From an uncultured Collinsella sp. (GTDB lineage: Bacteria; Actinomycetota; Coriobacteriia; Coriobacteriales; Coriobacteriaceae), in NCBI GenBank assembly GCA_900554595.1, contig USHZ01000001.1, forward strand, positions 1 to 45,609: a stretch of DNA of 45,609 nucleotides, given 5' to 3'. Both the position numbers and the translations under genes were made by a program. Position 1 is the first letter of the stretch; the number at the start of each line of letters is the position of its first letter. Of the stretch, positions 1,092-45,609 are shown in pieces. The notes under the pieces were generated by a model that saw nothing but the letters and a program-made list of their open reading frames with translations, ran no database searches and was not told the DNA's origin.

Positions 1092-1198
1092 GATCCGCAT
1101 GCGACGGAGGAAAACGGTTCATTTTGTCCCGACATGAGCTGTGCCCCCTCGTTTGGTACACTTAAAGGTACTGGACAAGTGAAGAGATGGGGGAGAAC

Positions 1199-19378: not shown

Positions 19379-19740
19379 GCTGAGTGGGCCAGACGGTCGC
19401 GCGATGTGCTGCTTGCAGCACGCGTGAGGAAAGTCCGGGCTCCAGAGGGCGGGATGCCGGCTAACGGCCGGGCGGAGTGATCCGACGGAAAGCGCCGCAG
19501 AAAAGAAGACTCCCACCTGCGCCGCAAGGCGTAAAGGGAAAAGCTGAAACGGTGGTGTAAGAGACCACCAGCGTCGTGGCAACACGGCGGCTTGGCAAGC
19601 CCCATCCGGAGCAAGCGCGAATAGGAACGCTATGGGCCGGCCCGGTCCGCGTTCGGGTAGCGTGCGTGGAGCTGCATGGTAACGTGCAGACAAGATAAAT
19701 GACCGTTCACGACAGAACCCGGCTTACAAGCCCACTCAGC
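19379..19740 (+). ncRNA. rnpB: RNase P RNA (type A)
   Basis: GAGGAAAGTCCGGGCTC and ACAGAACCCGGCTTA conserved motifs, GAAACGGTGGTGTAAGAGACCACC, terminal P1 pairing GCTGAGTGGGC/GCCCACTCAGC. Confidence 0.97.
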
Positions 19741-19750
19741 AACTATGTTG

Positions 19751-20756: not shown

Positions 20757-21203
20757 TTACTCGGCGAGCTGCTTTAGCATATCGCAGGCGATTTCGACGG
20801 CATCGTCGATGCAGCCGGGACAGCTGCGGAGCGGACCCTTGTCCGATCCGACGCCCTTGAGCGTGCCACAGACGGTCGTCGTGTTCTTCTCGCCAAAGCG
20901 CTTGGCAATCTCGCGCGACAGCTTGTAGGTCTGGCCCTTGGTCTTGGGGTTTTCCATACCGTCGCTCATCACAAAGCCCATGATGGCCACGGCGCCCGAG
21001 ATGGCGCCGCAGGTCTCGGTCATGCCGCCCATGCCGGCGCCAAAGCCCTCGGTGAGGGTAAAGGCGATCTGGGGGTCGAGCCCCACAGCGGGCGCGAGCG
21101 TGCAAGCGACAGCCTGGGCGCAGTTAAAGCCGCGGGCGTGGTACTCGGCAGCCTGAGCCTGACAGGCGGTGATGTCGAGCTGGGCTGTATCGATTTGCTT
21201 CAT
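20757..21203 (-). CDS. C-GCAxxG-C-C family putative redox protein
   Basis: FNCAQAV, GFGAGMGG..TCGAISG, TVCGTL, SCPGC; AAGGAG SD before ATG. Confidence 0.88.
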   Translation of the reverse strand: MKQIDTAQLDITACQAQAAEYHARGFNCAQAVACTLAPAVGLDPQIAFTLTEGFGAGMGGMTETCGAISGAVAIMGFVMSDGMENPKTKGQTYKLSREIAKRFGEKNTTTVCGTLKGVGSDKGPLRSCPGCIDDAVEIACDMLKQLAE

Positions 21204-21433
21204 CGTTGTCTCCTTGGTCACGGTGTACCCGCCTATGGTACCCGTGACGGGGCATGTAATCATCGAGAGCTTCATGTATGCCTCATTTATATCCATCGAT
21301 TAAATGCCTAAGGCTGAGACGAATGCCCCTGATTTATTTGTCTCATAACCTATCGGCGGGATGGGTTGAGAGGGGTGCGGGGTAGCGGTATCGTGAACCG
21401 AATAAAAACAAAACCCAAGTAAGGGAGTTGGAT

Positions 21434-28139: not shown

Positions 28140-28351
28140 ACGTTCCTCTTTTTGGTTGCAACAGGAGCATTATAGAACGTGCCAAACGTGACAAACCGGC
28201 AGGTTGATTTTCGGTTCTGTTTCGCCGTCCGTTACCGACAGGTGTATTCGCGGCCGCGGGCCAGGTCTTGAGCAAGCGGCGAGGGATTATACTGAGATAA
28301 ACATAAAGAATCGGCGCTTTTGTTGCGCGCCGCAGCATGCTAGAGGTGTAT

Positions 28352-29614
28352 ATGGCTGAGAAACTCATTCCGTTGGAGGACGCACAGGCGATCGTCTTGT
28401 CGCACGTGAATCGCACCGAAGTTGTCGAGATTCCCGTGTGGCAGGCGGCCGGTCTTCCCCTGGCCGAGGACGCCACGGCCGATATCGACATCTCTCCGTT
28501 TGCCAACAGCGCCATGGATGGATATGCCGTGCATGCCGTCGACCTCGCCAAAGCGTCCACCAATGCGCCCGTGACGCTTTCTGTCGTGGGGCACGAGGCC
28601 GCAGGCCATGTGTTCGATGGCGTTATCGCCCCGGGCGAGACCGTCCGCATCATGACAGGCGCGCCGGTGCCCGAGGGTGCGGATGCTGTGGTGAAATACG
28701 AGATCGTCGAGGTGCTTGACGGCGACGGCAACGAGGGCTCGCACGTGAGCTTTTCGGCGCCTGCTAAAGTGGGGGAGAACGTTCGCTCTGCCGCCGAGGA
28801 GGCCCATGCCGGCGACGTCGTGATGCGTGCCGGCGAGGTTGTGGCCCCGGCCGGCGCTGGCCTGCTGGCAAGCGCCGGTTACGCGAGCGTGAAGGTCCAT
28901 GCCGCTCCGCGCGTGGGCATTATCTCGCTGGGCACGGAGCTGGTCGCGCCGAGCAAGCTGCCGGCACGCGGGCAGATTCGCGATTCCAGCTCCTCGGCGT
29001 TGATGGCCGAAGCGCTCGATGCCGGCGCCGAGCCGGTGTTCTATGGCATTGCGCCCGATGATGAGCAGGCGATTGCCGAGCTGGTACATCGCGCCGTGCA
29101 GGAGTGCGATTTTGTCATTACGAGCGGCGGCGCCTCTGCGGGCGATTACGACTACGTGACGGCGCTGGTCAAGCGCGAGGGCGAGGTGCTCTTCGACCGC
29201 ATCTCGATGCGTCCTGGCAAAGCCATCACGTTTGGCCTGCTTGGGGGCAAGCCGTATTTGGGGCTTTCGGGCAATCCCGCGGCGGCGTATGTGGGCTTTG
29301 AGATGCTCGCCCGCCCCGCGATCCGCAAGATGCGCGGCTTTGCCGAGGGTACGCGTCCCGTGCAGCAGGCGATATTGACGCACGGCGTGAAGAAGCGCCA
29401 GGACCGACGCTTCTTCGATCGCGCCACGGTTTTGCGCGACCCCGAGACCGGTGAGCTGTTGGTGACCGAGGCCAAGACGCAGAATTCGGCGCTGCTCGGC
29501 ACGATGCAGCGGGCCAACTGTCTGCTGCGTATTGACGAAGGGCCGTGTGAGCTCAAGCCGGGCGACGTCGTGGGCGTCGTGCGTGTCGATCTGCCTGAGG
29601 ATGCCGTGTTGTAG
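28352..29614 (+). CDS. moeA: Molybdopterin molybdotransferase MoeA
   Basis: SAMDGYA, RIMTGAPVPEGADAVV, SGGASAGDYD, MRPGK, GNPAA. Confidence 0.95.
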   Translation: MAEKLIPLEDAQAIVLSHVNRTEVVEIPVWQAAGLPLAEDATADIDISPFANSAMDGYAVHAVDLAKASTNAPVTLSVVGHEAAGHVFDGVIAPGETVRIMTGAPVPEGADAVVKYEIVEVLDGDGNEGSHVSFSAPAKVGENVRSAAEEAHAGDVVMRAGEVVAPAGAGLLASAGYASVKVHAAPRVGIISLGTELVAPSKLPARGQIRDSSSSALMAEALDAGAEPVFYGIAPDDEQAIAELVHRAVQECDFVITSGGASAGDYDYVTALVKREGEVLFDRISMRPGKAITFGLLGGKPYLGLSGNPAAAYVGFEMLARPAIRKMRGFAEGTRPVQQAILTHGVKKRQDRRFFDRATVLRDPETGELLVTEAKTQNSALLGTMQRANCLLRIDEGPCELKPGDVVGVVRVDLPEDAVL

Positions 29615-29624
29615 GAGGAATGCT

Positions 29625-30104
29625 ATGGAGCTGAAGATATCGATCGTGACGTGCTCGGACACGCGCGATCTTGCCCAGGATGAGGCCGGAGCCGCACTCG
29701 AGGAACTTATCGAGGCGCAGGGCTGGACGGTCGCCTCACATGTGGTCGTGCGCGACGACGTCAGCGAGATCGGTGATGCCATTGTGGAAGCCGCCGATGA
29801 GTGCCACGCCAATGTCGTGCTCACCTGCGGTGGCACGGGTCTTTCGATGCGCGATGTGACGCCCGAGGCGACGCGCGCCGTCTGCGACCGCGATGTGCCG
29901 GGTATTGCAGAGGCGATCCGTGCGTACTCCATGACCAAGACGCACCGCGCTATGCTCTCGCGCGCTATTTGCATGCAGCGTGGGTATACGCTTGTCATCA
30001 ACTTCCCGGGATCTACGAAAGCAGCCCGCGAAAGCTGGGGGGCCGTGAGCGACCAGCTGGAGCATGCGGCTCAGATGACAGCGGGCGGCGGACATACCAA
30101 CTAA
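29625..30104 (+). CDS. Molybdopterin adenylyltransferase MogA/MoaB family
   Basis: TCSD, TCGGTG, RDVTPEAT, SRA, INFPGS; AGGAGG SD. Confidence 0.93.
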   Translation: MELKISIVTCSDTRDLAQDEAGAALEELIEAQGWTVASHVVVRDDVSEIGDAIVEAADECHANVVLTCGGTGLSMRDVTPEATRAVCDRDVPGIAEAIRAYSMTKTHRAMLSRAICMQRGYTLVINFPGSTKAARESWGAVSDQLEHAAQMTAGGGHTN

Positions 30105-30308
30105 GCGGTTTACCTGCGGCGGGGCGACCTGAACGGCTGCTCCGCCTTTTATTTGCGCCCAAGGGGACGGCATTCTGTAGGCATGCCTGAAACTATATTC
30201 TCAGACGAGAATAATTTCTTAGAATCATTATTCGCAACGAAGTATAATCTAATTACAGAATAAAGCCTGCGGTGGGGTACCCGGGCGTAGCATTCGAAAG
30301 GGTTGAAC

Positions 30309-31181
30309 ATGTTCGATATGGTTTCTCGCCGCGGTTTCGTCTCGCTCTCTGCTGTCGCCGCTGCCGGCCTTGGCCTTGCCGGCTGCTCCGGCAACAAGAC
30401 GTCTGAGCCGACTGGCTCCGCTGCCGGTTCTGCTAAGGCATCTTCCAAGAAAGCTGTCGAGCTTCAGGTCTTCGCTGCCAACTCTCTCGAGAAGGCCCTG
30501 CCCGAGGTCCAGGAGCTCTACACCGAGCAGACCGGCACCACCTTTGCCGACACGCAGTTTAAGGCCTCCGGCGACCTTGTCGAGCAGATGCGCGCCGGTG
30601 CCGCCGTCGACGTGCTCATCACGGCCTCCAAGGGCACCATGGACGACGCCGAGGCCGCCGAGCTCGTCGACGCCGACACGCGTGAGGATATGTTCGTCAA
30701 CGACCTCGTGATCATTCGCGCTGAGGGCTCCGACACCAAGATCGAGGCCATCGCCGACGTCGCGAATCTGGACGGCAAGATCGCCATTGGCGACGCCAAG
30801 ACCGTCCCCGCCGGCAAGTACGCCAACCAGGCACTGGCTTCCGTGGGCCTCTACACCGGTACCGAGGGTGACGACGGCGAGTATGCTCCCGAGCTTGCCG
30901 ACAAGGTGGCCCTGGCCGACAAGGTCGGCACCGCTGCGTCTTACGTCTCTACGGGCGACTGCGTGGCCGGTTTTGTCTACAGCTCCGATATCTTCCGCTA
31001 TGACGGCATCGAGGAGGCCTTCGTGTGCCCCGAGGACTCGCACAAGCCCATCGTGTATCCCGGTGCTGTCGCCGATAGCTCCGAGCACGCCGACGAGGCC
31101 AAGGCGTTTATCGACTTTTGCCTGTCCAATAAGAAGGCTCAGAAGATTTGGGCTAAGTACGGCTTTGAGCTTTCCGCGTAG
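30309..31181 (+). CDS. modA: Molybdate ABC transporter substrate-binding lipoprotein
   Basis: SRRGF twin-Arg-like signal + LAGC lipobox; FAANSL, ASGDL, VPAGKYA, VYSSD, PIVYP. Confidence 0.93.
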   Translation: MFDMVSRRGFVSLSAVAAAGLGLAGCSGNKTSEPTGSAAGSAKASSKKAVELQVFAANSLEKALPEVQELYTEQTGTTFADTQFKASGDLVEQMRAGAAVDVLITASKGTMDDAEAAELVDADTREDMFVNDLVIIRAEGSDTKIEAIADVANLDGKIAIGDAKTVPAGKYANQALASVGLYTGTEGDDGEYAPELADKVALADKVGTAASYVSTGDCVAGFVYSSDIFRYDGIEEAFVCPEDSHKPIVYPGAVADSSEHADEAKAFIDFCLSNKKAQKIWAKYGFELSA

Positions 31182-31249
31182 TGCGGCTTGGCGCGATAAT
31201 TCCATCGTTTTGTGTTTCACTCCGTCCTTGTATTCGCTTGGAGCTTTTC

Positions 31250-32692
31250 GTGCTTAATAGATTCAGCATGCTTGTCGCCTGTGCTTTGACCTTCGCGCTT
31301 TGCTGGGTGCCGGGATTTGCGTTTGCTGGGGTCGCTGAGGACGGGGCCCAAGTTGCTGCGACCGCTCATGGGCTTTCCTATGGGATTGAGGGTTTTGAGC
31401 GGTTGGCCAAGGGGACTGCTCGTGCCATGGAGGGCCAGCCTGAGGGCTACCGGTTTCCCGTTGACGAGGACGTGGACCTTGTAGTGGCGCCCGCTGCCGA
31501 TCGCGTTGTGGTGTGGATATCGCCCAAGGTGGTCGAGAAGTATGGATTGGATCCGCAGGACAACGAATGCGTATCGGGTCTCAAGGCCCTCGTCTGTAAG
31601 CTCGACAGCGCAAACTGCATGGGAGGTGCGCAGCTGGGGGACGTGGATCTTCCTTGGTATGTTACGGCGGAAACAACGTTTGATGCCGGCGGGTATACCT
31701 ATGGCTTTGACGAGCGCGGTGCGGATGGGGATCGCTATGTGGTGATTGCATCGGCCTCGGGTGATGCCAAGGGCGGCGCGCGTTGGCTTGATAGCGCTCA
31801 AATGATAGAGGCATCGTCTGTCGTGTTGCGGGATGAGCAGGGGCCCTTGGCCTCTCTGGCTTCCTTTTTAGGCGGCATCGACTACCGCCCGTTTTGGGTG
31901 TCCATAAAAACGAGCGGCCTTGCCCTGGTGATCTCCTTTGCACTGGGCCTGTTTGCCGCGTGGAAGACTATGGGTACCTCGAGTCGCATCAAGGGCCTGC
32001 TCGATTCAGTCTTTACGATTCCTATGGTGCTGCCGCCCACGGTCTGCGGCTTTCTGCTCCTCATGCTGTTTGGCCGCTCGACCGGGGTGGGCCAGTGGCT
32101 CATCGCGCACGGCATCTCGATCGTCTTTACCTGGCCTGCGGCGGTCATTTCGGCCGTCGTTGTGTCGTTTCCGCTGGTTTACCGCACGGCGCTTGGAGCC
32201 TTCGAGAGTCTCGACACGCAGATGCTCGACGCCGCACGAACCCTGGGATGGTCCGAGCGTCGCATCTTTGCCAAGCTCATGATGCCGCTCGGCTGGCCCT
32301 CCATCGCCGCCGGCGCGGTGCTTGCCTTCGCGCGTGCCATGGGCGAGTTTGGCTGCACCCTGTTCTTTGCGGGCAACTACGCCGGCATTACCCAGACCAT
32401 CCCCATCGCCATCTACTTTGAGTGGATGGGCGGCAACACGTCGGTGGCCCTCTTTTGGGTCGCCATCGTTATCGTGTTCAGTTTCCTGGTCATCCTGTTC
32501 ATCAACATGTACACGGCGCATTTTCAAAAGTATCGCGAGGGCGGTCTCTCCCGTGCGGAGCGCAAGCAGGCCAAAGAGCTCGCCGGACAGGGCGATTCGC
32601 TTGACCCGGTGGGCGGCGATGCCTTGCGCATCGATCGCGAGGCGCTGGCCGAGCTTATGCGCGATGACGCGGCACCTCAGGGAGGTCGATAA
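31250..32692 (+). CDS. modB: Molybdate ABC permease with long N-terminal extension
   Basis: C-terminal half: PMVLPPTVCGF, DAARTLG EAA loop, AFARAMGEFG, TQTIPIAIY; GTG start after TGGAG is inferred. Confidence 0.88.
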   Translation: MLNRFSMLVACALTFALCWVPGFAFAGVAEDGAQVAATAHGLSYGIEGFERLAKGTARAMEGQPEGYRFPVDEDVDLVVAPAADRVVVWISPKVVEKYGLDPQDNECVSGLKALVCKLDSANCMGGAQLGDVDLPWYVTAETTFDAGGYTYGFDERGADGDRYVVIASASGDAKGGARWLDSAQMIEASSVVLRDEQGPLASLASFLGGIDYRPFWVSIKTSGLALVISFALGLFAAWKTMGTSSRIKGLLDSVFTIPMVLPPTVCGFLLLMLFGRSTGVGQWLIAHGISIVFTWPAAVISAVVVSFPLVYRTALGAFESLDTQMLDAARTLGWSERRIFAKLMMPLGWPSIAAGAVLAFARAMGEFGCTLFFAGNYAGITQTIPIAIYFEWMGGNTSVALFWVAIVIVFSFLVILFINMYTAHFQKYREGGLSRAERKQAKELAGQGDSLDPVGGDALRIDREALAELMRDDAAPQGGR

Positions 32693-32695
32693 GCT

Positions 32696-33766
32696 ATGTC
32701 GCTCGTTTTGGATATCAAAAAACGCTATCCCGGGTTTATGCTCGACATGCAGCTTGAGGCCGGCGAGGAGCGTGTGGCGCTCCTGGGTGCCTCGGGTTGC
32801 GGCAAGAGCTGCACGTTGCGCTGCATTGCCGGCGTGGAGACACCCGACGAGGGGAAGATCGTCGTCAACGGCGTGACCTTTTTTGACTCGGTGGCGGGCA
32901 TCAATCTGTCGCCCCAGGAGCGAAAATGCGCCCTGATGTTTCAAAACTATCAGCTGTTCCCCAATATGACGGTGGCCGATAACGTGTGCGCCGGCGTTGA
33001 GGGTGCAGGCGACGCCGCGGCGCGCAGGCAACTTGCCGAACGCTACCTGGGTATCTTTGGACTGGCCGACTTTGCCGACCGCTATCCCGCGCGCCTCTCG
33101 GGCGGCCAGCAGCAGCGCGTGGCGCTCGCGCGCATGGTGGCGGCGCACCCGGGCATTTTAATGTTCGACGAGCCCATGAGCGCGCTCGACGCGTATCTCA
33201 AGAGCGCGCTTGAGCAGAACATGCTCGACCTGTTCGACGTCTGTAACCGTACCGTGCTCTACGTGAGCCACGACATCGACGAGGCATGCCGCTTGTGCCA
33301 GCGCATCTGCGTGATGCATAACGGGCATGTGGAGGAGATCGGCTCGGTCGATGAGGTGGTCCGTCATCCGCAAACGCTGGCGGCGCTGCGCCTGACGGGG
33401 TGCAAAAACACGAGCCGTGCGCGCAAGATCGGGCCCCAAGAAGTCGAGGCCCTCGACTGGGGCATGACCTTTAACGTGGGTCGCGAGGTTCCCGATGGTG
33501 TGGCGTACCTGGGCATTCGCGCAAGTTATTTCCATGTTGACAACCGTGCTGAGCGGGGCCGCAACAGCTATGATTTGCACGTGGCCCGTGTGAGCGATTC
33601 ACGTTTTGAGCGCCTGGTGCTGCTGGATGTGCCGCGTGCCGATGCGCCCACGCGTTTGCAGTGGAAGGTCAACAAGGTGGGCATACCTGTCGACGAGTTG
33701 CCGCAAGCAGGCGAGACGCTGCGCATGCATTTTGATGCCAGCAGGATCCATTTGGTTTGTCGATAG
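32696..33766 (+). CDS. modC: Molybdate ABC transporter ATPase
   Basis: GASGCGKS, FQNYQLFP, LSGGQQQR, DEPMSALD, VSHD. Confidence 0.92.
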   Translation: MSLVLDIKKRYPGFMLDMQLEAGEERVALLGASGCGKSCTLRCIAGVETPDEGKIVVNGVTFFDSVAGINLSPQERKCALMFQNYQLFPNMTVADNVCAGVEGAGDAAARRQLAERYLGIFGLADFADRYPARLSGGQQQRVALARMVAAHPGILMFDEPMSALDAYLKSALEQNMLDLFDVCNRTVLYVSHDIDEACRLCQRICVMHNGHVEEIGSVDEVVRHPQTLAALRLTGCKNTSRARKIGPQEVEALDWGMTFNVGREVPDGVAYLGIRASYFHVDNRAERGRNSYDLHVARVSDSRFERLVLLDVPRADAPTRLQWKVNKVGIPVDELPQAGETLRMHFDASRIHLVCR

Positions 33767-33969
33767 CGCCGGGTAATGCCGTCGGGGAATATAAGCCTCG
33801 GCGGCTTTGTTTTTGCCGTTCGCCGAATGAGGAATGACAAACTCTTATCAATCAAGATAATTATTTATTAGACGACGGCACACGACGCTGTCGTACGAAT
33901 GTCAACGGTGTTCGCATGGTCGATGACCGTTGATATAGTTGACCTCAACTTGTAAAGGAGGGTGCGCAC

Positions 33970-34197: not shown

Positions 34198-35481
34198 ATG
34201 GCTGAAGAATTTGATTTCCACCCGATGTGGGAGAGCCTCGGCATGAATCTTGCCGACCACGACATGCTGCTAGGCGCCGTGGGCCAGATGTATGGCGATA
34301 TGTTCTTGACGCAGAACAATCGCCCCAAGTCCACGTCCTACCTGGACTTTGTGGCCACCAACATCCACAGCGGCCGTATTAAGGAGATGCTCGACAAGAA
34401 GGAGGCTGGCGAGGCCACCAAAATCGTGGGCTCGTTCTGCGTGTACGTGCCCGAGGAGATCGTGCTTGCCTGTGACGGCATTCCCGTTGGTCTGTGCTCG
34501 GGTGCCGATTGGGCAACGGACAAGGTCGAGGAGCACTTGCCGCGCAACACTTGTCCGCTTATCAAGAGCTTTGCCGGCTTTAAGCTGGGTGAGGTCTGCC
34601 CCTACATCGAGTCGAGTGACTTGGTGGTAGGCGAGAACACCTGCGATGGCAAGAAGAAGGCCTACGAGTTTTTTGCCACGCAAAAGAACATGTACGTCAT
34701 GGATATTCCCAACGTGCACGACGAGTCGACGCTCGTGACCTGGAAGGCCGAGGTTAAAAAGCTCGCCGTCAAGATTGAGGAAGAGTGCGGCGTCACGATT
34801 ACGCCTGAGCGTCTGAAGGCCGCCATCCGCGCCGTCAATGAGAAGCGTCGCGCCCTGCAGCGCCTCGCTGCCACGCGCGCTGCCGACCCAGCGCCCATTA
34901 GCGGTCTCGACAGCCTGCTGACCGTTCAGGCCGCCTTTATGGACGACACGCCGCGTCTGACCGGAGCCATCAACGATATGGCGGCCGAGTGTGAGCAGCG
35001 TGTCGAGGCCGGCGAGGGCGTAGCACCCAAGGGGACCAAGCGCATCCTGTACACCGGTACGCCCATGGCCGTGCCCAACTGGAAGCTGTTCAGCCTCATC
35101 GAGAAAGCCGGCGGCATTGTGGTAGGCGAGGAGTCCTGCACGGGCTCGCGCTACTACAAGGATCTGGTCGACGAGTCCGGCGAGACGGTCGACGAGATGC
35201 TCGACGCCATCGCCGAGCGCTACTTTAAGATCAACTGTGCCGTCTTTACGCCCAACGACCAGCGAATGAAGGACATTGTCCAGATGGCCAAGGACCTGCA
35301 TGCCGACGGCATTGTCGACGTGGCCCTGCAGTTCTGCACGCTCTACGAGATGGAGTCGTTTGCCGTGGAGAAGGCCGCCGAGGAGGCCGGCATTCCGTTT
35401 ATGCGCATCACGACCGACTATGCCGGCGAGGACGCCGGCCAACTGCAAACCAGGATCGAGGCTTTCTTGGAAACCATTTAG
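34198..35481 (+). CDS. Double-cubane-cluster protein (DCCP) / 2-hydroxyacyl-CoA dehydratase family, long N-terminal type
   Basis: [69 protein letters not shown]. Confidence 0.9.
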
Positions 35482-35494
35482 GGCTATCCGTCTC

Positions 35495-35601
35495 GGCGGC
35501 TTCCCCAGGCACCCGATCTTGCCGTTCAAACCGTCGCTTGCGTACCAGAAGTACGCGGCGCTCCTCTTTCACGGCAACCTCGGGCACCTGGGAAAGCCGT
35601 T
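35495..35601. repeat. Palindromic element family 1, copy C
   Basis: ~31-nt arms 35495-35525 and 35571-35601, 45-nt loop TCAAACCGTCG...CTCCTCTTTC. Confidence 0.8.
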
Positions 35602-35636
35602 TCCTTGGTTGGTTAAAAGGTCTGTTAAGGAGTTAT

Positions 35637-36800
35637 ATGTCGGAAAATACTGAGCAGCCGTTGCCGCGCACGTTTGAGGAGTTCAACGAGCAACGCAAGG
35701 CGGCGTTTATTCGCGTCAAGGATTATAAGCAGGCGGGTAATCGCCTGGTCGGCTTTTTGTGCAGCTATACGCCGCTCGAGATTATCGATGCCGCGGGCGC
35801 TGCAAGTGTGGCCTTGTGCGGCACATCCGACGAGGTGATTCCCGAGGCCGAGAAGGTGCTGCCGGCAAATCTGTGTCCGCTCATCAAATCGACGTACGGC
35901 TTTGCCTATTCGCAAAAGTGCCCGTTTACGTACTTTAGCGACATGATCATCGGCGAGACCACCTGCGACGGCAAGAAGAAGATGTACGAGCTACTCAACG
36001 AGCTCAAGCGCACGCACATTCTGCATCTTCCGCAGGGTCGCGATCGTGCCTACGAGCGTGAAGGCTGGTACGAGGAGTGCCGCCTGCTCAAGGAGGAGCT
36101 CGAGGGCTTCTACGGCATCACGATTACCGACGATGACCTGCGCGCTGCCGTCCGTCGTCGCAACCGCTTGCGTGCGGCCCAGCTCGAGATGTTTGCACTG
36201 CAGGCCAACCAGCCGGCGGCCATGAGCGGCGTCGACCTGATGAGCACCATGTTTGCCGGTACGTTCAGCTTTGATATCGAGGCCTATACGCAGCAGCTGG
36301 AGCAAAAGGTCGCCAAGCTGCGCGAGGCCTACGACGCGGGCGAGCGCCCGGTCGCGGCGGATGCCAAGCGCATTCTGATCACCGGCTGCCCGGTGGGCGG
36401 CGTGATCAACAAGATCGGTCGCACCATCGAGTCCAACGGCGGTGTGGTCGTGTGCATGGACGACTGCTCGGGCGAGCGCACGGCGGCCATGATGATCGAC
36501 CCGGAGGCTCCCGACATCCTGCGCGCCATCGCCGACCGCTACTTGGATATCAACTGCTCGGTCATGACGCCCAACGACGGTCGTATGGAAAACACGCTGG
36601 CCATGTGCGAGAAGTATCACGTCGATGGCGTAGTGGAGAGCGTGCTCCAGGCGTGCCACACCTTTAACGTGGAGAGTGCGCGCATGCAGGAGGCTGTCGA
36701 GGGTGCGGGTATTCCGTATATGAAGATCGAGACCGACTACAGCAACGGCGACATGGGCCAGATCGAGACGCGCATCGCTGCCTTCATCGAAACCCTGTAG
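35637..36800 (+). CDS. Double-cubane-cluster protein, YjiM-like (2-hydroxyacyl-CoA dehydratase family)
   Basis: [68 protein letters not shown]. Confidence 0.9.
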
Positions 36801-36850
36801 GACAAATGCGGCAAAGGGATAGCTGCTTTGCCGCATAGAAGGAGGATGCC

Positions 36851-37615
36851 GTGGTTGGCATTGGTATCGACATAGGCTCGACGGCCGCGAAGGCTGCGGT
36901 GGTGGAGACGGACAACGCCATTGCGTGGACCTGCGTCATGCCGACGGGGTATTCGTCGGTCGATGCGGCCGAGCGCCTACGCGGTGAACTCGCCGCAGCC
37001 GGCTATGACGTGACGGGCGACGATGTTCGCGTGGTCGCGACTGGGTACGGCCGTGTCGCGGTGCCCTATGCCAACAAGGTAGTGACCGAGATCACCTGCC
37101 ATGGTGCCGGTGCGGTCCGCCTGTTTGGCGAGCAGGGCACGGTGATCGACGTGGGCGGCCAGGATACCAAGGTCATCCAACTCAAGGGCGGCCGCGTGGC
37201 AAAGTTCGCCATGAACGACAAGTGCGCCGCCGGCACGGGGCGCTTTCTGGAGATCATGGCCGACCGCCTGGGCATTACCCAGCAGCAGATGGCAGACCTC
37301 GCCCGCACCGGCGAGCCTACCAAGATTTCTAGCATGTGTACCGTGTTTGCCGAAAGCGAGGTCATCAGCCTGATCGGTCGCGGTGAGCCGCGCGAGAACA
37401 TTGCGCGTGGCGTGATCGACAGCGTGGTCTCGCGCGTGGCGACCATGGCCGGACAGGCCGCGGGCGCCCCGTACTACCTGACCGGTGGCCTGTGCGAGAA
37501 CGCCTTCGTAGTGGAGCGGTTGGGCGAGCTACTGGGGTCGCCGGTGACCACCTCGCCCCAGGCTCGCTTTGCCGGAGCGATCGGCGCGGCTGTCCGCGCC
37601 GCCGCCTTGGCCTAG
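36851..37615 (+). CDS. ATP-dependent [4Fe-4S] activator (HgdC/YjiL/DCCP-R type)
   Basis: GIDIGST, ATGYGR, TEITCH, DVGGQDTK, MNDKCAAGTGRFLE, SMCTVFAESE. Confidence 0.94.
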   Translation: MVGIGIDIGSTAAKAAVVETDNAIAWTCVMPTGYSSVDAAERLRGELAAAGYDVTGDDVRVVATGYGRVAVPYANKVVTEITCHGAGAVRLFGEQGTVIDVGGQDTKVIQLKGGRVAKFAMNDKCAAGTGRFLEIMADRLGITQQQMADLARTGEPTKISSMCTVFAESEVISLIGRGEPRENIARGVIDSVVSRVATMAGQAAGAPYYLTGGLCENAFVVERLGELLGSPVTTSPQARFAGAIGAAVRAAALA

Positions 37616-37629
37616 GGGTGTACCGCGAC

Positions 37630-38847
37630 ATGCGCATCCTCAATATCTCGGCACAAAAACCAGATAGCACTGGCAGTGGCACCTACCTTGCCGCGCTCGT
37701 GCGCGAACAGATCGAGACGGGACATCGCGCCGCCGTGCTTTGCGGCGCGGCACCGGGTGATACCCAAGGCGAGCTGGACCGGCGTGCTGCCGTGTTTGCC
37801 GTACCGTTCGAGTCGCCCGAGCTGCCGTTTCCCATCTGTGGCATGTCCGATGTCATGCCCTATCCCTCCACACGCTATCGTGATCTGACGCCTTCGATGC
37901 TCAAGGCATTTGAGCGGGCATTTGCTGCTGCAATCGATCGGGCGGTGGCTGAGTTTCGGCCCGATCTGGTGCTCTGCCATCACCTGTATCTGGTGACCGC
38001 ATTGGCGCGCGAGTGCGTCCGAGGCGTGCCGGTTGTTGCCGTGTGTCATTCGACCGACCTGCGCCAGCTGCGTTCGCATACGCTCGAACGCGATCGCATC
38101 GTAAGTGCGGTTCGTCGGCTCGATGCCGTCTTTGCACTCCATGCTGAGCAGGCTGAGCAGATTGGCCTGGTGTGCGGCGTCGATGCCGATCGTATCCACG
38201 TGATTGGGACGGGCTACGACCATCGCGTCTTCTGCCGCGATGCAAGCGTGGCGAGGCAGCCGGGATCGCTTGTGTACGTGGGCAAGATTTGCTTTAAAAA
38301 GGGCGTCGAGTCGCTGGTTCGAGCTGTGTCATTACCGATTGACGATGGCGTCCGCCCATCTGGCTTGGTACTTGTGGGCGGCCGCGGGGACGATGCCGAG
38401 TACGCGCGTATCGAGCGCTTGACCGCGGCCTCGGATGTGCCGGTGACGCTGGCGGGGCGCCTGGATAGCGATGGGCTCGTGCGTGCCTACCGCAGTTCCG
38501 ACGTCTTTGTGCTGCCTTCGTTTTACGAGGGTCTGCCGCTCGTGACGATCGAGGCCCTCGCGTGCGGCTGCAAAGTTGTGGCGACCGATTTGCCCGGCGT
38601 TCGTCCCTGGATGGAGGCGATGCTTCCCGGTGCTCCCGTGACGTGGGTGGCGTCGCCGCGTATGACGGATGTCGACACGCCCGTGGCGGCCGACCTTCCG
38701 TTGTTTGAGCGCGCACTGGCAGATGCTATCGCGCAGGCGCTTGCGGCGCCGCTTTCGACGTTCGAGCCGTCGGCGGTCTCTTGGGAAGCGTGCCTGGCGC
38801 GTATACTTAAAGCCGTTGATTTGTTGGAAGGGGGTTCGTATGGCTAA
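37630..38847 (+). CDS. Glycosyltransferase family 4 (GT-B)
   Basis: MRILNISAQKP..TGSG N-terminus, YVGKI..KKG, VLPSFYEGLPLVTIEALACG (EX7E). Confidence 0.9.
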   Translation: MRILNISAQKPDSTGSGTYLAALVREQIETGHRAAVLCGAAPGDTQGELDRRAAVFAVPFESPELPFPICGMSDVMPYPSTRYRDLTPSMLKAFERAFAAAIDRAVAEFRPDLVLCHHLYLVTALARECVRGVPVVAVCHSTDLRQLRSHTLERDRIVSAVRRLDAVFALHAEQAEQIGLVCGVDADRIHVIGTGYDHRVFCRDASVARQPGSLVYVGKICFKKGVESLVRAVSLPIDDGVRPSGLVLVGGRGDDAEYARIERLTAASDVPVTLAGRLDSDGLVRAYRSSDVFVLPSFYEGLPLVTIEALACGCKVVATDLPGVRPWMEAMLPGAPVTWVASPRMTDVDTPVAADLPLFERALADAIAQALAAPLSTFEPSAVSWEACLARILKAVDLLEGGSYG

Positions 38848-39889
38848 GGACACCATGAGGCTCACGTCTATGACTGCCGCGAGCGGTTGAGCCGCTAAGT
38901 TGGCTCCTGGAGCCCTCGCCCAGGTCCTGGGCGACTTGCCCAATGTGCATAACGATAACCTGCTCGTGGGGTTCGATACCTCCGACGATGCGAGTGTCTT
39001 TCGTGTTGGCGAGAACTTGGGTCTCGTGCAATCCATCGACTTCTTCCCGCCGATGGTCGACGATCCCTATTTGTTCGGTCAGATTGCCGCGGCCAACTCG
39101 CTGTCGGACATCTACGCCATGGGCGGGCGGCCGAGCCATGCCATGAACCTTCTGTGCATCCCCAGTTGCCTGGGCGTTGAGGTTGCCGGGCAGATTTTGG
39201 CGGGTGGCGCCGACAAGTGCGTCGAGGCGGGTTGCTCCATCGCGGGCGGCCACACCATCAACGACGACGAGCCCAAGTACGGCTTGTCCGTGAGCGGCTT
39301 TGTCGCGCTCGACCGTATGCTCGCCAACAGCGGCGCGCGCGTGGGCGATGTCCTGCTGCTGACCAAGGCGATCGGCTCGGGCATCATCACCACGGCCATT
39401 AAGGGCGAGCTCATCGAACAGGATGGCGCCAGCCCGATGTTCGACTCGATGCGTACCCTCAACGAGGCCCCGATTCGTCTGGCCGAGGGCCTCGAGCTTC
39501 ACGGCTGCACTGACGTCACGGGCTTTGGCCTGATCGGGCACGCGTGCGAGATGGCCGAGGGCTCGGGCGTGCAGATTGAACTGACGTCGGGCGCGGTGCC
39601 GCTCTTTGACCAGGTGCTCGACATGGCGCGTCTGGGCATTATCCCCGCCGGCGCCTACCGCAACCAGGACTTCTTTGGCTCGCGCGTGACGGCCGACGAT
39701 GACCTGGAGCCAGGCATGCTGGATGCGCTGTACGATCCACAGACCTCGGGTGGCTTGCTCATCGCGGCGCCTGCTGCCGATGTGGATGAGCTCGCGCGTC
39801 GTCTGCATGCCGAGGATCGCATCGCCGCCGTTGTCGGTCGCGTGTGCGAGGCGGTGCCGGGCGGTCCTGCTGTTCGCGTTGTGCATTAA
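38840..39889 (+). CDS. selD: Selenide, water dikinase (selenophosphate synthetase), selenocysteine-containing (U17)
   Basis: ATG 38840 in frame with TGA 38888-38890 and ORF 38900-39889: MAKDTMRLTSMTAASG-U-AAKL; DDASV, DFFPP, GQIAAANSLSDIYAMGG, GGHT, TDVTGFGL, DPQTSGGL. Confidence 0.95.
38916..38934 (+). promoter_or_regulatory. Bacterial SECIS hairpin of selD
   Basis: TCGCCCA-GGTCC-TGGGCGA; G-starting apical loop about 33 nt 3' of the UGA. Confidence 0.75.
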
Positions 39890-39949
39890 GGAAAACCGTT
39901 TATGCGACCGTCCGTTGTTCTGGGCGGTCTCTTTTGAAAGGAATTTACT

Positions 39950-40576
39950 ATGTCTACCAAGATTGAAGTCAATGCCATGGGCGATGCCTGCCCGCTGCCC
40001 GTCGTCAAGACGCTCAAGGCCCTCAAGCAGCTCGATGGCGAGGGCGCCGTCGTGACCTCGGTCGATAACGAGACCGCCGTCAAGAACATCTCCAAGATGG
40101 CGCAGGAGAAGGGCTGTACGGCCACGGTCGAGAAGGTTTCTGACGCCGAGTGGCAAGTGACCGTGGCGACCTCTGGCGCCGTTGCCGTGGCCGATCCCGA
40201 GCAGGATGGCGCTGCTTTCTGTGGTGTCGGCGCCGGCAAGGGCAAGCTCGTCATTTCCGTCTACACCGACTGCATGGGCCGCGGCGACGACGAGCTGGGC
40301 CACAAGCTCATGAAGGCCTTCATCTTTGCCGTGACGCAGCAGGAGGAGCTGCCCGCGACCATGCTGTTCTACAACGGCGGCGCCAAGCTCACCGTCGAGG
40401 GCTCACCGGTACTCGACGACCTGAAGGGTCTGGCCGAGCAGGGTGTCGAGATCCTTACCTGCGGCACCTGCCTCGATCACTTTGGCATTAAGGACCAGCT
40501 CGCGGTGGGCGAGGTCACGAACATGTACGTGATCGTGGAGAAGATGGAGCAGGCTGTGCGCGTCGTGCGCCCGTAG
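39950..40576 (+). CDS. yedF: Selenium metabolism protein YedF (TusA/SirA + DsrE-like fusion)
   Basis: N-terminal GDACPLPVV (TusA CPxP), C-terminal MGRGDDELG, FYNGG, CGTCLDHF. Confidence 0.9.
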   Translation: MSTKIEVNAMGDACPLPVVKTLKALKQLDGEGAVVTSVDNETAVKNISKMAQEKGCTATVEKVSDAEWQVTVATSGAVAVADPEQDGAAFCGVGAGKGKLVISVYTDCMGRGDDELGHKLMKAFIFAVTQQEELPATMLFYNGGAKLTVEGSPVLDDLKGLAEQGVEILTCGTCLDHFGIKDQLAVGEVTNMYVIVEKMEQAVRVVRP

Positions 40577-40594
40577 CGTTTGGGCGGGATTGCC

Positions 40595-40846
40595 ATGAGA
40601 GAAAAGCGCCCTGCGCTTGTCATCACGTTTCCTACCACGGCGGCCGCCATGGGGTGCGAGACCCTATGCATCGAGCGCGGCCTTCCCGGGCGCACGATTC
40701 CCGTGCCCGGAGAGGTCGCTGCCGGATGCGGCTTGGCGTGGAAAGCGCTGCCTTCGGATGAGGATCTGCTGCGCGGCGAGCTTGCCGCGGCGGGCGTTCC
40801 CACCGAGGGCTTTACCGTGATCGATATGTGGGAGGTCGTGCGATGA
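40595..40846 (+). CDS. DUF3343 family small protein
   Basis: ITFPTTAAAM, IPVPGEVAAGCGLAW motif; stop overlaps next ATG (ATGA). Confidence 0.82.
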   Translation: MREKRPALVITFPTTAAAMGCETLCIERGLPGRTIPVPGEVAAGCGLAWKALPSDEDLLRGELAAAGVPTEGFTVIDMWEVVR

Positions 40847-41982
40847 TCTACCTGGATAACGCGGCGACGACCATGCACAAGCCGCAGGCGGTGATCGATG
40901 CCGTGGCGCAGGCGATGTGCTCGCTCGGCAATGCCGGACGCGGCGCGACGTCGGGCGCGCTCGACGCTGCGCGTACCATCCACGGCTGCCGCACTAAGAT
41001 TGCGTGCCTGTTGGGATGCCCGCGGGCTGACCATGTGTGCTTTACGCCTAACTCGACGGCGGCGCTCAACACGGCCATTAACGGCGTGGTGCGCCCCGGC
41101 GATCGTGTGGTCACGACGGTGCTCGAGCACAACTCCGTGCTGCGTCCGCTCAACCGCCTGGCGGCAGAGCGGGGCGTGACCGTTGAGCATGCGGGCTGCG
41201 ACGCGAACGGCGTGCTCGACTATGACGAGCTTGAGCGGCTGGTCACGCCGGGCACGCGTGCCGTGGTGGTGGCGCACGCCTCCAATGTGACCGGCAACGC
41301 GGTCGACATTGCGCGCGTGGCCGCCATGGCCCATGCGGCCGGCGCGCTGGCGATCGTCGACGCCTCTCAGTCTGCCGGTACGGCTCATATCGATATGCAG
41401 ACCATGGGGCTCGACGTCGTGTGCTTTACCGGCCACAAAGCGCTCATGGGACCTCAAGGCACCGGCGGCCTGGCCGTGGCAGAGGGCATTGACGTGGCCC
41501 CTTGGGCCATGGGTGGCACCGGTGTTCACAGCTTCGATGAGCTGCAGCCGCTTGAGTGGCCCACGCGCCTTGAGGCGGGCACGCTCAACGGCCATGGCAT
41601 CGCGGGCCTTTCCGCTGGTCTCGACTTTATCGAGGCCCAGGGTGGGGTCGAGGCGATTGCTGTCCACGAGCGTGCGCTCGCTGATCGCTTCCTTGCCGGT
41701 GTGCGCGAGATTCCGGGGATTAAGCTCTACGGTGCCTTTGACCAGCTGACGCGCTCTGCGATTGTGTCGCTCAACGTGGGTGATATCGACTCTGCCGAGA
41801 TCTCGGATGCCCTCATGCAAGGGTGGGGGATTGCGACGCGCCCCGGTGCCCATTGTGCCCCGCTCATGCACCGCGCGTTAGGCACCGAGCGCCAGGGTGT
41901 CGTTCGCTTCTCGTTTGGATATTTCAACACGACCGAAGAAGTCGACACGGCTATCGATGCTCTGCGCGATTTAGCCTGCTAA
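40843..41982 (+). CDS. Class V PLP aminotransferase: cysteine desulfurase / selenocysteine lyase-like
   Basis: YLDNAATT, EHNSV, HASNVTG, DASQSAG, TGHKALMGPQGTG, EAGT, RPGAHCAP catalytic Cys. Confidence 0.92.
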   Translation: MIYLDNAATTMHKPQAVIDAVAQAMCSLGNAGRGATSGALDAARTIHGCRTKIACLLGCPRADHVCFTPNSTAALNTAINGVVRPGDRVVTTVLEHNSVLRPLNRLAAERGVTVEHAGCDANGVLDYDELERLVTPGTRAVVVAHASNVTGNAVDIARVAAMAHAAGALAIVDASQSAGTAHIDMQTMGLDVVCFTGHKALMGPQGTGGLAVAEGIDVAPWAMGGTGVHSFDELQPLEWPTRLEAGTLNGHGIAGLSAGLDFIEAQGGVEAIAVHERALADRFLAGVREIPGIKLYGAFDQLTRSAIVSLNVGDIDSAEISDALMQGWGIATRPGAHCAPLMHRALGTERQGVVRFSFGYFNTTEEVDTAIDALRDLAC

Positions 41983-42004: not shown

Positions 42005-42035
42005 GCGGGACGGGTCTTTTGCCCGTCCCGTTTTT
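42005..42035 (+). terminator. Terminator closing the selenium cluster
   Basis: GCGGGACGGGT / GCCCGTCCCGT + T-run. Confidence 0.75.
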
Positions 42036-42058
42036 GTTTCGACCTGAAAGGTGTGCCT

Positions 42059-43508: not shown

Positions 43509-43585
43509 CGGGACGTGGCGCAGTTTGGTAGCGCGCCTGCTTTGGGAGCAGGATGTCGCAGGTTCAAATCCTGTCGTCCCGACCA
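43509..43585 (+). tRNA. tRNA-Pro (anticodon TGG)
   Basis: CGGGACG/CGTCCCG acceptor, CCTGC-TTTGGGA-GCAGG, GGTTCAAATCC, CCA. Confidence 0.97.
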
Positions 43586-43591
43586 TATCTT

Positions 43592-43665
43592 GCGGGCGTA
43601 GTTCAATGGTAGAACCCCAGCCTTCCAAGCTGATGACGCGGGTTCGATTCCCGTCGCCCGCTCCA
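43592..43665 (+). tRNA. tRNA-Gly (anticodon TCC)
   Basis: GCGGGCG/CGCCCGC acceptor, CAGC-CTTCCAA-GCTG, GGTTCGATTCC, CCA. Confidence 0.97.
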
Positions 43666-44409: not shown

Positions 44410-44865
44410 TTAGCTGCGGGGGCGGTGGCGGAGCTTGTCGATGGTGGCGTCGGTGCTGCGGTTGCGGGCTTCGGCTGAGGTTTGGCGCTTGCGGCGGTAG
44501 TCGATCATGCCTTGGATGATGGGCTTGCCAAAGCTCACGACATCATCGTTATAGATAGCGGTTCGGGCTGCGAGGAGGCAGTCGGTAAAGTCCATATGGG
44601 TCTTGCCAAAGAGTTTGACGGCAAGGGCGACAACGGTGGGCTCGTCGACCATGACGTCATCGAGCAGTCTTTTCATGGCCGCAGCAATCTCAACGCGGGG
44701 AACCTTATAGACGTCGCGCAGCGTGACCACGACGCGCGTGATGATTTCGGGGTAGACACGAGCGGTGCGGGTGGCGATGACCTTGGCGGCGCGCGGTGAC
44801 AGAACCTCGTCGTCGTTAAGCAGGTAGCGTAGGATGACGGTCTCGTCGATGATGGTGCTACTCAT
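44410..44865 (-). CDS. PIN-domain (VapC-like) protein, putative toxin
   Basis: IIDETVILRYLLND N-terminus, DFTDCLLAA; overlaps upstream antitoxin by 8 nt. Confidence 0.8.
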   Translation of the reverse strand: MSSTIIDETVILRYLLNDDEVLSPRAAKVIATRTARVYPEIITRVVVTLRDVYKVPRVEIAAAMKRLLDDVMVDEPTVVALAVKLFGKTHMDFTDCLLAARTAIYNDDVVSFGKPIIQGMIDYRRKRQTSAEARNRSTDATIDKLRHRPRS

Positions 44866-45181
44866 GGATATCTACTTCCTCGGGACCCAAAACCGAATCG
44901 TCGCTTTCCGTAGCAAGGTATTCAATCCAGGCATTGCGTTCCTCAGAGCGGCGATTGGGGTCCCCATATGCTTTGAGCGATCCATAGGCGGCGGTGCCGT
45001 CCTTTGAGCGTACGGCGACTGGCTGAAAGGGGAGCTTGCACATCAAAATGCTCTGAGCGACAAATAGGCGGACGGCCTCGGCGAGCGAGGTGCCCATGGC
45101 GTCGTAGAGGCGCTCGGCATGCTGCTTGTCATCTTCGCGGATGCGCACCTGCAGGATGGCTCTTTTTTGAGTCGATGACAT
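44858..45181 (-). CDS. RelB/DinJ-family antitoxin
   Basis: LQVRI.EDDKQHAE.LY.AMG.SL.EAVRLFV.QS.....LPF pattern; GGGAGG SD before ATG 45181. Confidence 0.85.
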   Translation of the reverse strand: MSSTQKRAILQVRIREDDKQHAERLYDAMGTSLAEAVRLFVAQSILMCKLPFQPVAVRSKDGTAAYGSLKAYGDPNRRSEERNAWIEYLATESDDSVLGPEEVDIHE

Positions 45182-45609
45182 CGCTGGCCTCCCTTTATTA
45201 GCGTGCAATATGGATGGTCAAATACGGCACGTGCCGATACTTGGCAATCATATATCCAATACTTTATTGCACTCAAGTTTATGAGTGTAAACATTACTAC
45301 AAGCGTAGTACATCTTTAAAAGAAGAGCGTGAAATCTCTCGCGGCGTACGCGTGTAATACACTCATCTCTATATCTAAGCAAGAATAATTCTAACCAGCA
45401 CAAACCCCTGCAATACACACGTATTGCAGGGGTTACGCTCAAGATTACCCCCTGCAACTGCGTATATTCAACCTGTATACCGTTGGAGGAATCTTATCGA
45501 AGTGCCTGTTTCGCCGCATGCATTCGATACGCCGATGCCGGACCACGGGCGGTTCGGGGCAACGTCGACAGGGTCTCTCCGGCATGGGATTCAGGAGGGA
45601 GTGAACAAC

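Follow-up and report, generated by a model that had tools for sequence, protein, structure and literature searches.

Do eight consecutive genes around selD in a Collinsella genome encode one dedicated route to a selenium metabolite, or functions that merely share a locus? The question arises from contig USHZ01000001.1 of an uncultured, C. aerofaciens-like Collinsella sp. (assembly GCA_900554595.1), whose whole stretch of 45,609 nt was analyzed and is referred to here as the window. The genes code for two double-cubane cluster proteins (DCCP1 and DCCP2), an ATP-dependent activator, a glycosyltransferase of family GT4, a selenocysteine (Sec)-containing SelD, the proteins YedF and DUF3343, and a pyridoxal phosphate (PLP)-dependent enzyme (Table 1). 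SelD converts selenide into selenophosphate, the activator uses ATP hydrolysis to push electrons into double-cubane proteins, and enzymes of the EF2568 family, to which the PLP enzyme belongs, are able to free selenium from selenocysteine. An earlier note on this DNA had combined all eight genes into a single, undescribed selenium pathway. The analysis presented here favors, with a probability of about 0.55, a seven-gene core that acts as a selenium-supply operon for clients encoded elsewhere in the genome, with the GT4 gene as a separate accessory. This type of selenium operon and the link between DCCPs and SelD are already known, while a selenium-linked, strain-variable GT4 subfamily and a predicted DCCP-DUF3343 interface were not found in the literature searched, which mostly excludes subscription journals.

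Selenophosphate clients and the proposed function of the core

The idea of a new end product drew on the absence of the usual selenophosphate clients, and indeed no selA, selB, selU, yqeB or yqeC family member is present among the 43 window open reading frames (ORFs) scanned. The argument nevertheless fails, as the genome holds Sec and selenium-cofactor clients outside the window. Searches of the genome itself recovered selA, selB and tRNA-Sec (selC, on contig C158), yqeB and yqeC (contig C79), a formate dehydrogenase gene with an in-frame TGA, and a Se-dependent xanthine dehydrogenase (TIGR03311) together with ygfK and ssnA (contig C10). selU was not found in this assembly, which is 87% complete, and a search of the genome for GrdB, uninformative for want of a working positive control, gave no match. 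These clients rule out an orphan SelD without any known client, and SelD can be explained without a new end product. In the available part of a preprint on 2,8-dioxopurine, C. aerofaciens is among the strains with a uric-acid cluster, all of which possess SelD and YqeBC (10.1101/2025.04.24.650524).

In the supply operon proposed here, selenium would enter via the PLP lyase or from other sources and would be held on cysteines of YedF and DUF3343. The activator-driven DCCPs would act upstream of SelD and reduce selenium that is carrier-bound or refractory in some other way to the level of selenide; the long DCCP would dock a DUF3343 carrier through the N-terminal helices lining its substrate channels. 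SelD would then phosphorylate selenide for Sec synthesis and molybdenum-hydroxylase maturation, so that the clients served would be the Sec-formate dehydrogenase, SelD itself and, via YqeB/C, the Se-dependent molybdenum hydroxylases. GT4 would form an accessory branch, kept beside selenium genes in Coriobacteriia.

Both kinds of client, formate dehydrogenase and xanthine dehydrogenase, are molybdoenzymes. The region directly upstream of the selenium operon (28337-33766) contains moeA, a mogA/moaB-like gene and modABC. At 1187-4932, the window further encodes an FAD subunit and a fused Fe-S/Mo-binding protein of the xanthine dehydrogenase family (best model NF043082, 607 bits at a cut-off of 780), which is likely a further selenium-cofactor client on the same contig.

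The selenium-mobilizing genes

Eight plus-strand ORFs fill the span from 34198 to 41982, and each passes or matches the model of its named family. SelD is of the Sec-containing type: it matches TIGR00476, its in-frame TGA at 38888 stands at the catalytic position (residue 17) and is followed by a predicted hairpin of -27.3 kcal/mol, and selABC are present in the genome. The same TGA context was found in 73 of 80 related loci, which are the best 80 of 437, 97-100% identical and selected for GT4, and which show conservation within the aerofaciens complex only. The PLP enzyme passes the EF2568 family model TIGR01977 (413.9 bits at a cut-off of 377), and the group II motif RXGXHCA, as given in the description of SclA (10.1101/2020.02.07.939272), is found as RPGAHCA at residues 333-339.

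The same four families, selD, yedF (SirA-like), DUF3343 and Sec lyase, have been described as neighbors before (PMC2432076; PMC5322559), E. faecalis EF2566-EF2568 being an example. To call the locus undescribed was therefore too strong: Zhang 2008 lists C. aerofaciens selD and the sirA-like gene as neighbors in Table 1 and counts them among those of organisms with a third selenium trait (PMC2432076), and both the DCCP/SelD link and the idea of a Se-bridged cluster are found in Haft and Gwadz (10.1101/2022.07.06.499078). In the STRING network of Slackia in Lin 2015, an activase and two dehydratase-type subunits are partners of YedF and DUF3343, and the glycosyltransferase Shel_25140 is a partner of YedE (PMC5322559). 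The available text of Zhang 2008 and Lin 2015 does not discuss glycosyltransferase or reductases as selenium enzymes.

A formate/nitrite-transporter gene recurs in nine coriobacterial selenium clusters and is also present in a genome without selA (G030). Beyond a formate channel alone, its product could be a selenide or selenite channel.

Double-cubane proteins as neighbors of selD

Both reductases exceed the NF040772 cut-off of 350 bits (487.7 bits for DCCP1, 496 for DCCP2) and share 39% identity. DCCP1 is matched best, and over its full length, by PDB entries 7YYL and 6ENO (E 3e-126). The seven cysteine ligands (residues 81, 100, 119, 149, 314, 347 and 380 of DCCP1; 42, 61, 80, 110, 277, 307 and 340 of DCCP2) occupy columns that are invariant in the DCCP alignment, including both window proteins, with spacings 1-3 residues off the printed motif. 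The adjacent activator scores above the TIGR00241 cut-off, as expected of a DCCP-R-type reductase component. The seven-cysteine motif, the full-length match and the adjacent ATPase are thus common to the window, DCCP/DCCP-R of Carboxydothermus hydrogenoformans (6ENO, 7YYL) and E. coli YjiM/YjiL. In contrast to these systems, the window holds both classes in tandem, DCCP1 with the class I N-terminal extension and DCCP2 of YjiM-like length, with one activator and inside a selD operon.

The selenium-mobilizing module read by the earlier note from the lyase, the YedF/DUF3343 carriers and SelD is supported, and the DCCP genes prove to be conserved neighbors of selD, being located within 10 kb of it in 16 of 26 Coriobacteriia genomes (the 39 DCCP-bearing genomes minus six aerofaciens-type ones and seven without a printed selD coordinate). 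G182 shows the window order without GT4, followed by yqeB, and in G044, a genome that lacks GT4, selA/selB are situated 3 kb downstream. In a wider survey, 955 of 970 double-cubane proteins came from SelD genomes, and its authors favored a role in the processing of selenium compounds while treating a Se-bridged cluster as a formal possibility (Haft and Gwadz, 10.1101/2022.07.06.499078). The SAO system described in the same work likewise combines DCCP genes and an activase with selenium-related genes; unlike there, the neighbors in the window are SelD and its carriers, and an NCBIfam scan of 43 window ORFs gave no match to a model of the nine sao genes (SaoL, P, A, B, X, E, C, T, D). The characterized DCCP, which reduces acetylene in vitro, is described as carrying an [8Fe9S] cluster, and no physiological substrate is known for double-cubane proteins (PMC7317905, section 2.3); no report of a DCCP substrate since 2023 was found in the literature searched.

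A predicted complex between DCCP and the DUF3343 carrier

A form of DUF3343 ending in RDxY/FC was identified in 9 of 301 Coriobacteriia genomes, all of one family. In all nine, its gene is located directly 3' of that of a long DCCP, and in one (G050) the pair lies 295 kb from selD. Complex prediction for the pair of G098 yielded a score of 0.80, compared with 0.00 for the best of three controls; 116 of 157 solved pairs and 2 of 215 mismatched ones attain the mark applied, counts that are rough and rest on our own alignments. Contacts agreed between runs by at least 89%, and the partner had a predicted local distance difference test (pLDDT) value of at least 85. On the DCCP side, the modeled interface spans residues 19-56; on the carrier side, it spans residues 34-51 and 80-89, among them the conserved Cys46 and the terminal Cys89. 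The model places the PTPR loop, the Cys46 region and the tail of the carrier on the N-terminal helices of the DCCP. In the solved enzyme, these helices close off the cavity except for two narrow channels (PMC7317905). A DUF3343 partner of this long class is not mentioned for the C. hydrogenoformans DCCP in the available parts of the published descriptions, no earlier account of the interface was found in the literature searched, and a sequence search for a solved relative of the carrier gave no clear match (best E 0.011).

The predicted docking fits a DCCP that reduces carrier-bound selenium and fits equally a carrier that delivers selenium to the DCCP. It is a tentative proposal, given somewhat less than even odds, that the DCCPs of the operon act on selenium from docked DUF3343 carriers, which would be the first physiological substrate of this nitrogenase-like family. 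The conserved gene pair and the predicted interface turn the published co-occurrence of DCCP and SelD into a specific biochemical experiment.

Several points weigh against the supply function proposed for the core and its reductases. Selenium use does not require DCCPs, as 20 of 59 selD-bearing genomes lack them. On the SclA model NF040779, the PLP enzyme reaches 346.8 bits, below the cut-off of 525. The nine genomes with the tail-bearing carrier are kin, and the complex was modeled for the G098 pair, whereas the tail form occurs in 0 of 97 Collinsella genomes and the DUF3343 of the window shares the P-x-P and CG residues in the alignment but not the tail. Moreover, a cluster-free monomer was modeled for a protein that is homodimeric, and part of the tail contacts (403-412) lie in the region named as reductase contacts (PMC9351452).

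A second DUF3343 protein with a Cys-rich N-terminal extension is encoded downstream of selB and tRNA-Sec in the same genome as the window (G000, contig C158, 3152-3556) and is a candidate partner of DCCP1.

Distribution and genomic context of the glycosyltransferase

Among the 301 Coriobacteriia genomes, GT4 was found in 47, with 27 of 97 other Collinsella, 19 of 71 genomes from two other families and 0 of 121 from families f5-f28. selD is present in 250 of the 301, among them 89 of the 97 Collinsella and 114 of the 121 genomes of families f5-f28. All five GT4-less Collinsella strains examined keep the operon intact, the activator being joined to selD across a short spacer. Outside Collinsella, DCCPs occur in 11 of 16 genomes with both selD and GT4 compared with 16 of 26 with selD alone, and a DCCP is near GT4 in only 5 of 20 Coriobacteriia loci (all 19 non-Collinsella matches and one divergent Collinsella allele). 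As the genomes are kin, Fisher tests on these loci are descriptive only. GT4 is thus an optional gene that is not coupled to the reductases, which makes one eight-gene pathway unlikely. Of the expected conservation of GT4 and DCCP genes next to selD, what stands is that both are selenium-linked in Coriobacteriia; GT4, however, does not track DCCP.

The link of GT4 to selenium genes is seen across changing arrangements. A selenium gene is located within 1 kb of GT4 in 14 of the 20 loci and within 10 kb in 16, and the immediate neighbor can be selD, selA, selB, the lyase or DUF3343, with the order selD-GT4-selA-selB in three loci. In G238, selD is 47 kb away, and in G005, a genome without selA, GT4 ends a mod/moa operon, with yqeB and yedF 7-8 kb away. 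Of the genomes with selD and GT4, 14 of 16 also carry selA, as opposed to 9 of 26 with selD alone, a comparison among kin genomes that is confounded with family. Three GT4 loci were found in genomes without selD, one frameshifted (G120), one a fragment (G094) and one intact (G220), whereas none of the 44 copies in selD genomes has an internal stop.

Within Collinsella, GT4 is under purifying selection like its neighbors (pN/pS, the ratio of nonsynonymous to synonymous polymorphism, 0.13; one stop among 80 loci), and its GC content at third codon positions (GC3) is 0.685 compared with 0.74-0.86 in the neighboring genes. Its synonymous diversity of 0.05 over the 80 loci is 3-5 times below that of the neighbors (0.16-0.29), a difference that arises in part because the loci were chosen as the best GT4 matches but that could reflect recent spread. 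A second Collinsella allele, 67% identical to that of the window, is present in L131 (G222:C44) and L111 (G128:C1); the flanking proteins of L131 are 90-98% identical, which points to an exchange of alleles or to a gene gained more than once at this site.

Selenium-linked copies belong mainly to one clade of a midpoint-rooted FastTree phylogeny, read without its support values. Outside this clade, 15 of 17 metagenome loci with enough flanking sequence, some of them near-duplicates, have no selenium gene nearby; another 31 loci had too little flank. The remaining two, which are sisters, do have one: in L187, GT4 is situated about 5 kb from yedF, lyase and DUF3343 genes, and in L199 directly after activator and DCCP genes. 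A single Acetoanaerobium record carries GT4 and selD 275 kb apart. In a sampling centered on a Bulleidia-titled contig, 8 of 401 matches were the center itself and seven at the coordinates of Coriobacteriia matches.

Identity and fold of the glycosyltransferase

The GT4 subfamily is defined by the motifs QKPxxTGSG, GMSDxMPY, HH, CHxTDLRQ, GKxxxxKG and EGLPLVxxE. The AlphaFold model shows a GT-B fold (pLDDT 95.9), and its nearest folds are GlgM, BshA and sucrose-phosphate synthase (Z about 33, root-mean-square deviation 3.0-3.6 Å, about 350 aligned residues), with MshA at Z 26.8. The features of retaining enzymes, namely a Gly-rich loop (G15/G17), K219, K224 and the EX7E pair E300 and E308, are conserved, and the donor-site motifs are shared with these four retaining GT4 enzymes. 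However, identity to them is 17-24%, far under every curated cut-off, and the acceptor-side motif GMSDxMPY, invariant across the whole subfamily, is peculiar to it. NCBIfam holds no strong match to the subfamily (best E 1e-26), and the ESM Atlas returned generic GT4 names only for its homologues. GT4 is an intact retaining-type enzyme that most likely transfers a sugar from a nucleoside diphosphate (NDP)-sugar to a small anionic, probably phosphorylated acceptor. Such an acceptor is suggested because basic residues of the N-terminal domain are conserved (K/R10, R/K82 and R145) and because neighbors are phosphatase-like, a PHP-family gene being found directly 3' of GT4 in 6 of 28 other loci (101 of 156 neighboring ORFs scanned). 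Selenophosphate would be one such anion, although a role as selenosugar synthase seems unlikely.

A precedent is the SenABC selenoneine cluster, whose selenosugar synthase SenB (TIGR04348) is also a glycosyltransferase with a GT-B fold and a gene overlapping selD, the overlap by which it was found (10.1101/2022.04.13.486033). According to PMC10891094, no other selenium glycosyltransferase has been reported; the SenB mechanism given there was used for comparison. Identity of GT4 with SenB was rejected: GT4 reaches 20 bits on TIGR04348 at a cut-off of 300, it reads EGLPLV (E300-G301-L302-P303-L304) rather than EGGAHV, and the SenB structure ranks 34th among its matches (Z 23.6, 3.3 Å, 288 aligned residues). 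The best of 83 subfamily members gave E 3.7e-16 on this model. Unlike SenB, which inverts, GT4 belongs to another family with a retaining-type signature, and its hosts are anaerobic gut bacteria; an EgtB-like (senA) ORF was absent from the eight genes and the flanks scanned.

The subfamily is wide, with 369 representatives at E<=1e-30 and clusters in Bacillota and Thermodesulfobacteriota, and named members come from C. difficile, Enterocloster, Coprococcus and Peptostreptococcaceae. The C. difficile member CDR20291_0773 is 36-38% identical and is not located beside selenium genes. Its assignment draws on one published deletion primer that matches exactly upstream of the gene in L208 and on the other, which matches the start region by inspection. 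In the available text of the deletion study, glycolipids, the sole trait tested, were unchanged (PMC11761805), which disfavors a role of GT4 as glycolipid synthase; no further function of this protein was found in the literature searched. Nor was the subfamily found described as a selenium enzyme there, although unseen supplements (Kayrouz Supplementary Table 1, Haft Tables S1/S2) may list it.

A search for GT4-SelD fusions gave five matches among 8000 long candidates and no such fusion, which is weak evidence. Fusions of activator and GT4 (602-669 aa) occur in P0001, P0002, P0004, P0009, P0010 and P0013 with one or two members each; these are probably sporadic frameshifts or errors, the activator stop being intact in 78 of 80 loci with a readable junction. 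Distant subfamily members (P0193, P0224, P0235, P0257, P0415-P0418) are fused to Gfo/Idh/MocA oxidoreductase, DUF6873, gamma-glutamylcyclotransferase or S-adenosylmethionine-dependent methyltransferase domains, which are clues to the acceptor.

Competing explanations

For the reductases, the supply function has to be weighed against the reverse direction of selenium flow, in which SelD, YedF and DUF3343 would put selenium into a Se-bridged 8Fe cluster and the mature DCCPs, themselves the clients, would reduce an unrelated substrate. The near-constant company of SelD in the survey and the predicted docking agree with this alternative, delivery fitting the interface as well as removal. It is nonetheless improbable, since Haft and Gwadz rate the processing of selenium compounds as more likely than a Se-bridged analogue (10.1101/2022.07.06.499078), the characterized enzyme carries sulfur in its cluster formula, and it is selenium-handling genes, with no substrate-specific gene, that recur with DCCP in the examined loci. 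Far less credible still is a single undescribed pathway in which reductases and GT4 act in sequence on the way to a selenium metabolite. The full eight-gene order is kept in 61 of the 80 relatives selected for GT4, the other 19 showing a contiguous part of it, and GT4 lies directly 5' of DCCP1 in L123 and L129 and behind an activator-DCCP pair in L199; against this, 5 of the 16 genomes with selD and GT4 lack a DCCP and most of those with selD alone possess one, the two genes are seldom close, the operon persists without GT4, and known clients exist in the genome. The pathway is largely refuted by this distribution.

For GT4, two readings compete, and its link to selenium genes has roughly even odds of being functional. 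GT4 may have nothing to do with selenium and make a small glycoside of an ordinary kind, such as a solute derived from a sugar phosphate, after a single entry into the selenium cluster of a coriobacterial ancestor followed by carriage or loss. We regard this as rather doubtful, even though GT4 is far rarer than selD, differs in GC3, has mostly housekeeping neighbors elsewhere, resembles sugar-phosphate and thiol-precursor GT4s most closely in fold, and holds at its 3' end a candidate selD promoter element that could favor adjacency. What speaks against it is that the gene has remained next to one or another selenium gene in spite of many rearrangements, with no unrelated neighbor retained alongside, that even in G005 it stands within reach of yqeB and yedF, that copies decay where selD was lost, and that the C. 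difficile deletion removes glycolipid synthesis as one ordinary role. Alternatively, GT4 could be a second, convergent selenium glycosyltransferase that joins selenophosphate and an NDP-sugar into a seleno(phospho)sugar for storage, detoxification or as a selenometabolite; in lineages with a PHP phosphatase, this enzyme would strip the phosphate. Such a function would be compatible with the supply-operon core. The 8-nt overlap with selD is of the kind that led to SenB, and the proximity to changing selenium genes, including a place between selD and selA, the excess of selA in GT4-bearing genomes (kin and not independent), the two broken copies among three in selD-less genomes and the sister loci outside the coriobacterial clade all point the same way. 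Yet GT4 fails the tests for SenB in sequence and structure (Z 23.6 versus 33), its acceptor motif is invariant in a subfamily that mostly lives away from selenium genes, G220 retains an intact copy without selD, no SelD fusion turned up among long homologues (weak evidence), and the selenium-linked copies, mainly of one clade, may trace back to one origin. That gut Coriobacteriia, including about one-third of C. aerofaciens-type genomes, make an alpha-linked selenosugar from selenophosphate by GT4 is thus an unlikely outcome. If it were true, a second, unrelated selenium glycosyltransferase would extend selenium small-molecule chemistry to anaerobes, as a strain-variable trait of common gut bacteria; natural Collinsella strains with and without GT4 in otherwise matching operons offer a cheap test. 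Should both the docking and the GT4 lead fail, an ordinary selenium-supply operon with a passenger gene would be left.

Transcription

Transcription was followed in four RNA runs from three studies, all of GT4-less relatives, with the contigs of two runs skipping GT4. In the two raw-read runs, the cluster was covered mainly in the direction expected for plus-strand RNA, at a depth of about 50-80 over the DCCP genes, 60-135 over selD and 110-165 from yedF to the lyase gene, compared with 8-30 on the other strand. A split of the transcript at the hairpin at 39906, which the earlier note had feared, is not borne out: depth did not drop after it or beyond 42005, with the qualification that the hairpin diverges in these relatives and reads do not lie on the hairpin itself. 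Depth rises at selD, and all 79 Collinsella loci with a located selD start, whether or not they carry GT4, have a TATACT hexamer 32 nt before the gene. The sequence conservation suggests that this hexamer is an internal selD promoter, and a split is more likely at this -10-like element than at the 39906 hairpin.

Gene arrangement and other features of the window

Table 1. Features of the selenium gene cluster and its borders (window coordinates)
Feature	Position	Strand	Basis
Candidate sigma-70-type promoter	33834..33861	+	10/12 consensus match; weak, 3 sites found vs 2.4 expected
DCCP1, class I (long) double-cubane protein with putative [8Fe-9S] cluster, extended at the N terminus, 427 aa	34198..35481	+	NF040772
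Palindromic repeat of ~100 nt, like repetitive extragenic palindromic (REP) elements, genome-dispersed, not operon-specific	35496..35600	.	blastn, folding
DCCP2, short (YjiM-like) double-cubane protein, 387 aa	35637..36800	+	NF040772
HgdC/DCCP-R-type ATP-dependent activator	36851..37615	+	TIGR00241 234.7 bits, PF01869
Optional GT4 glycosyltransferase, unnamed subfamily	37630..38847	+	PF13439/PF00534
TATACT hexamer inside GT4 3' end, candidate internal -10 for selD	38802..38807	+	Conservation
Sec-containing SelD; TGA 38888-38890, then hairpin resembling a selenocysteine insertion sequence (SECIS)	38840..39889	+	TIGR00476 361.9 bits with TGA=U
Hairpin and short U-tail between selD and yedF	39906..39935	+	Terminator scan
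YedF (TusA-DsrE) selenium metabolism protein	39950..40576	+	TIGR03527 214.2 bits, cut-off 110
DUF3343 putative Se/S carrier, short form without C-terminal RDxYC tail	40595..40846	+	PF11823, alignment
Group II NifS-like PLP enzyme, EF2568 family (SclA-like Sec lyase/Cys desulfurase)	40843..41982	+	TIGR01977
Intrinsic-terminator-like hairpin at cluster end, 11-bp stem and T run	42005..42041	+	Terminator scan

The distances between the eight genes are 155, 50, 14, -8, 60, 18 and -4 nt. The 14-nt gap, the 8-nt overlap and the ATGA overlap noted earlier are exact, while the 155 nt between DCCP1 and DCCP2 do not fit the description of short gaps. This gap holds the palindromic repeat, which folds into a long hairpin of -58 kcal/mol, has at least 14 further blastn matches in the same genome and many copies in five relatives, and found no match in Rfam; the RNA-mapped strains have another copy of it after DCCP2. 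Rfam likewise gave no riboswitch near the cluster at gathering scores. Terminator-like hairpins at 39906-39929 and 42005-42031 are present as proposed, in a scan whose total of 12 such sites is within chance (8.7 +/- 3.4 in shuffled sequences).

Further genes related to sulfur or selenium are found at 20757-21296 on the minus strand (a C-GCAxxG-C-C family protein) and at 21428-22717 (O-acetylhomoserine sulfhydrylase). A third gene of this group, at 15183-16607, encodes an SDH_alpha-domain protein, which we take to be YhaM-like. In addition, the window carries RNase P RNA (19381-19742), three tRNAs covered by 5073-5156 and 43509-43665, and, near the contig end, a RelB/DinJ-type antitoxin gene on the minus strand (44858-45208).

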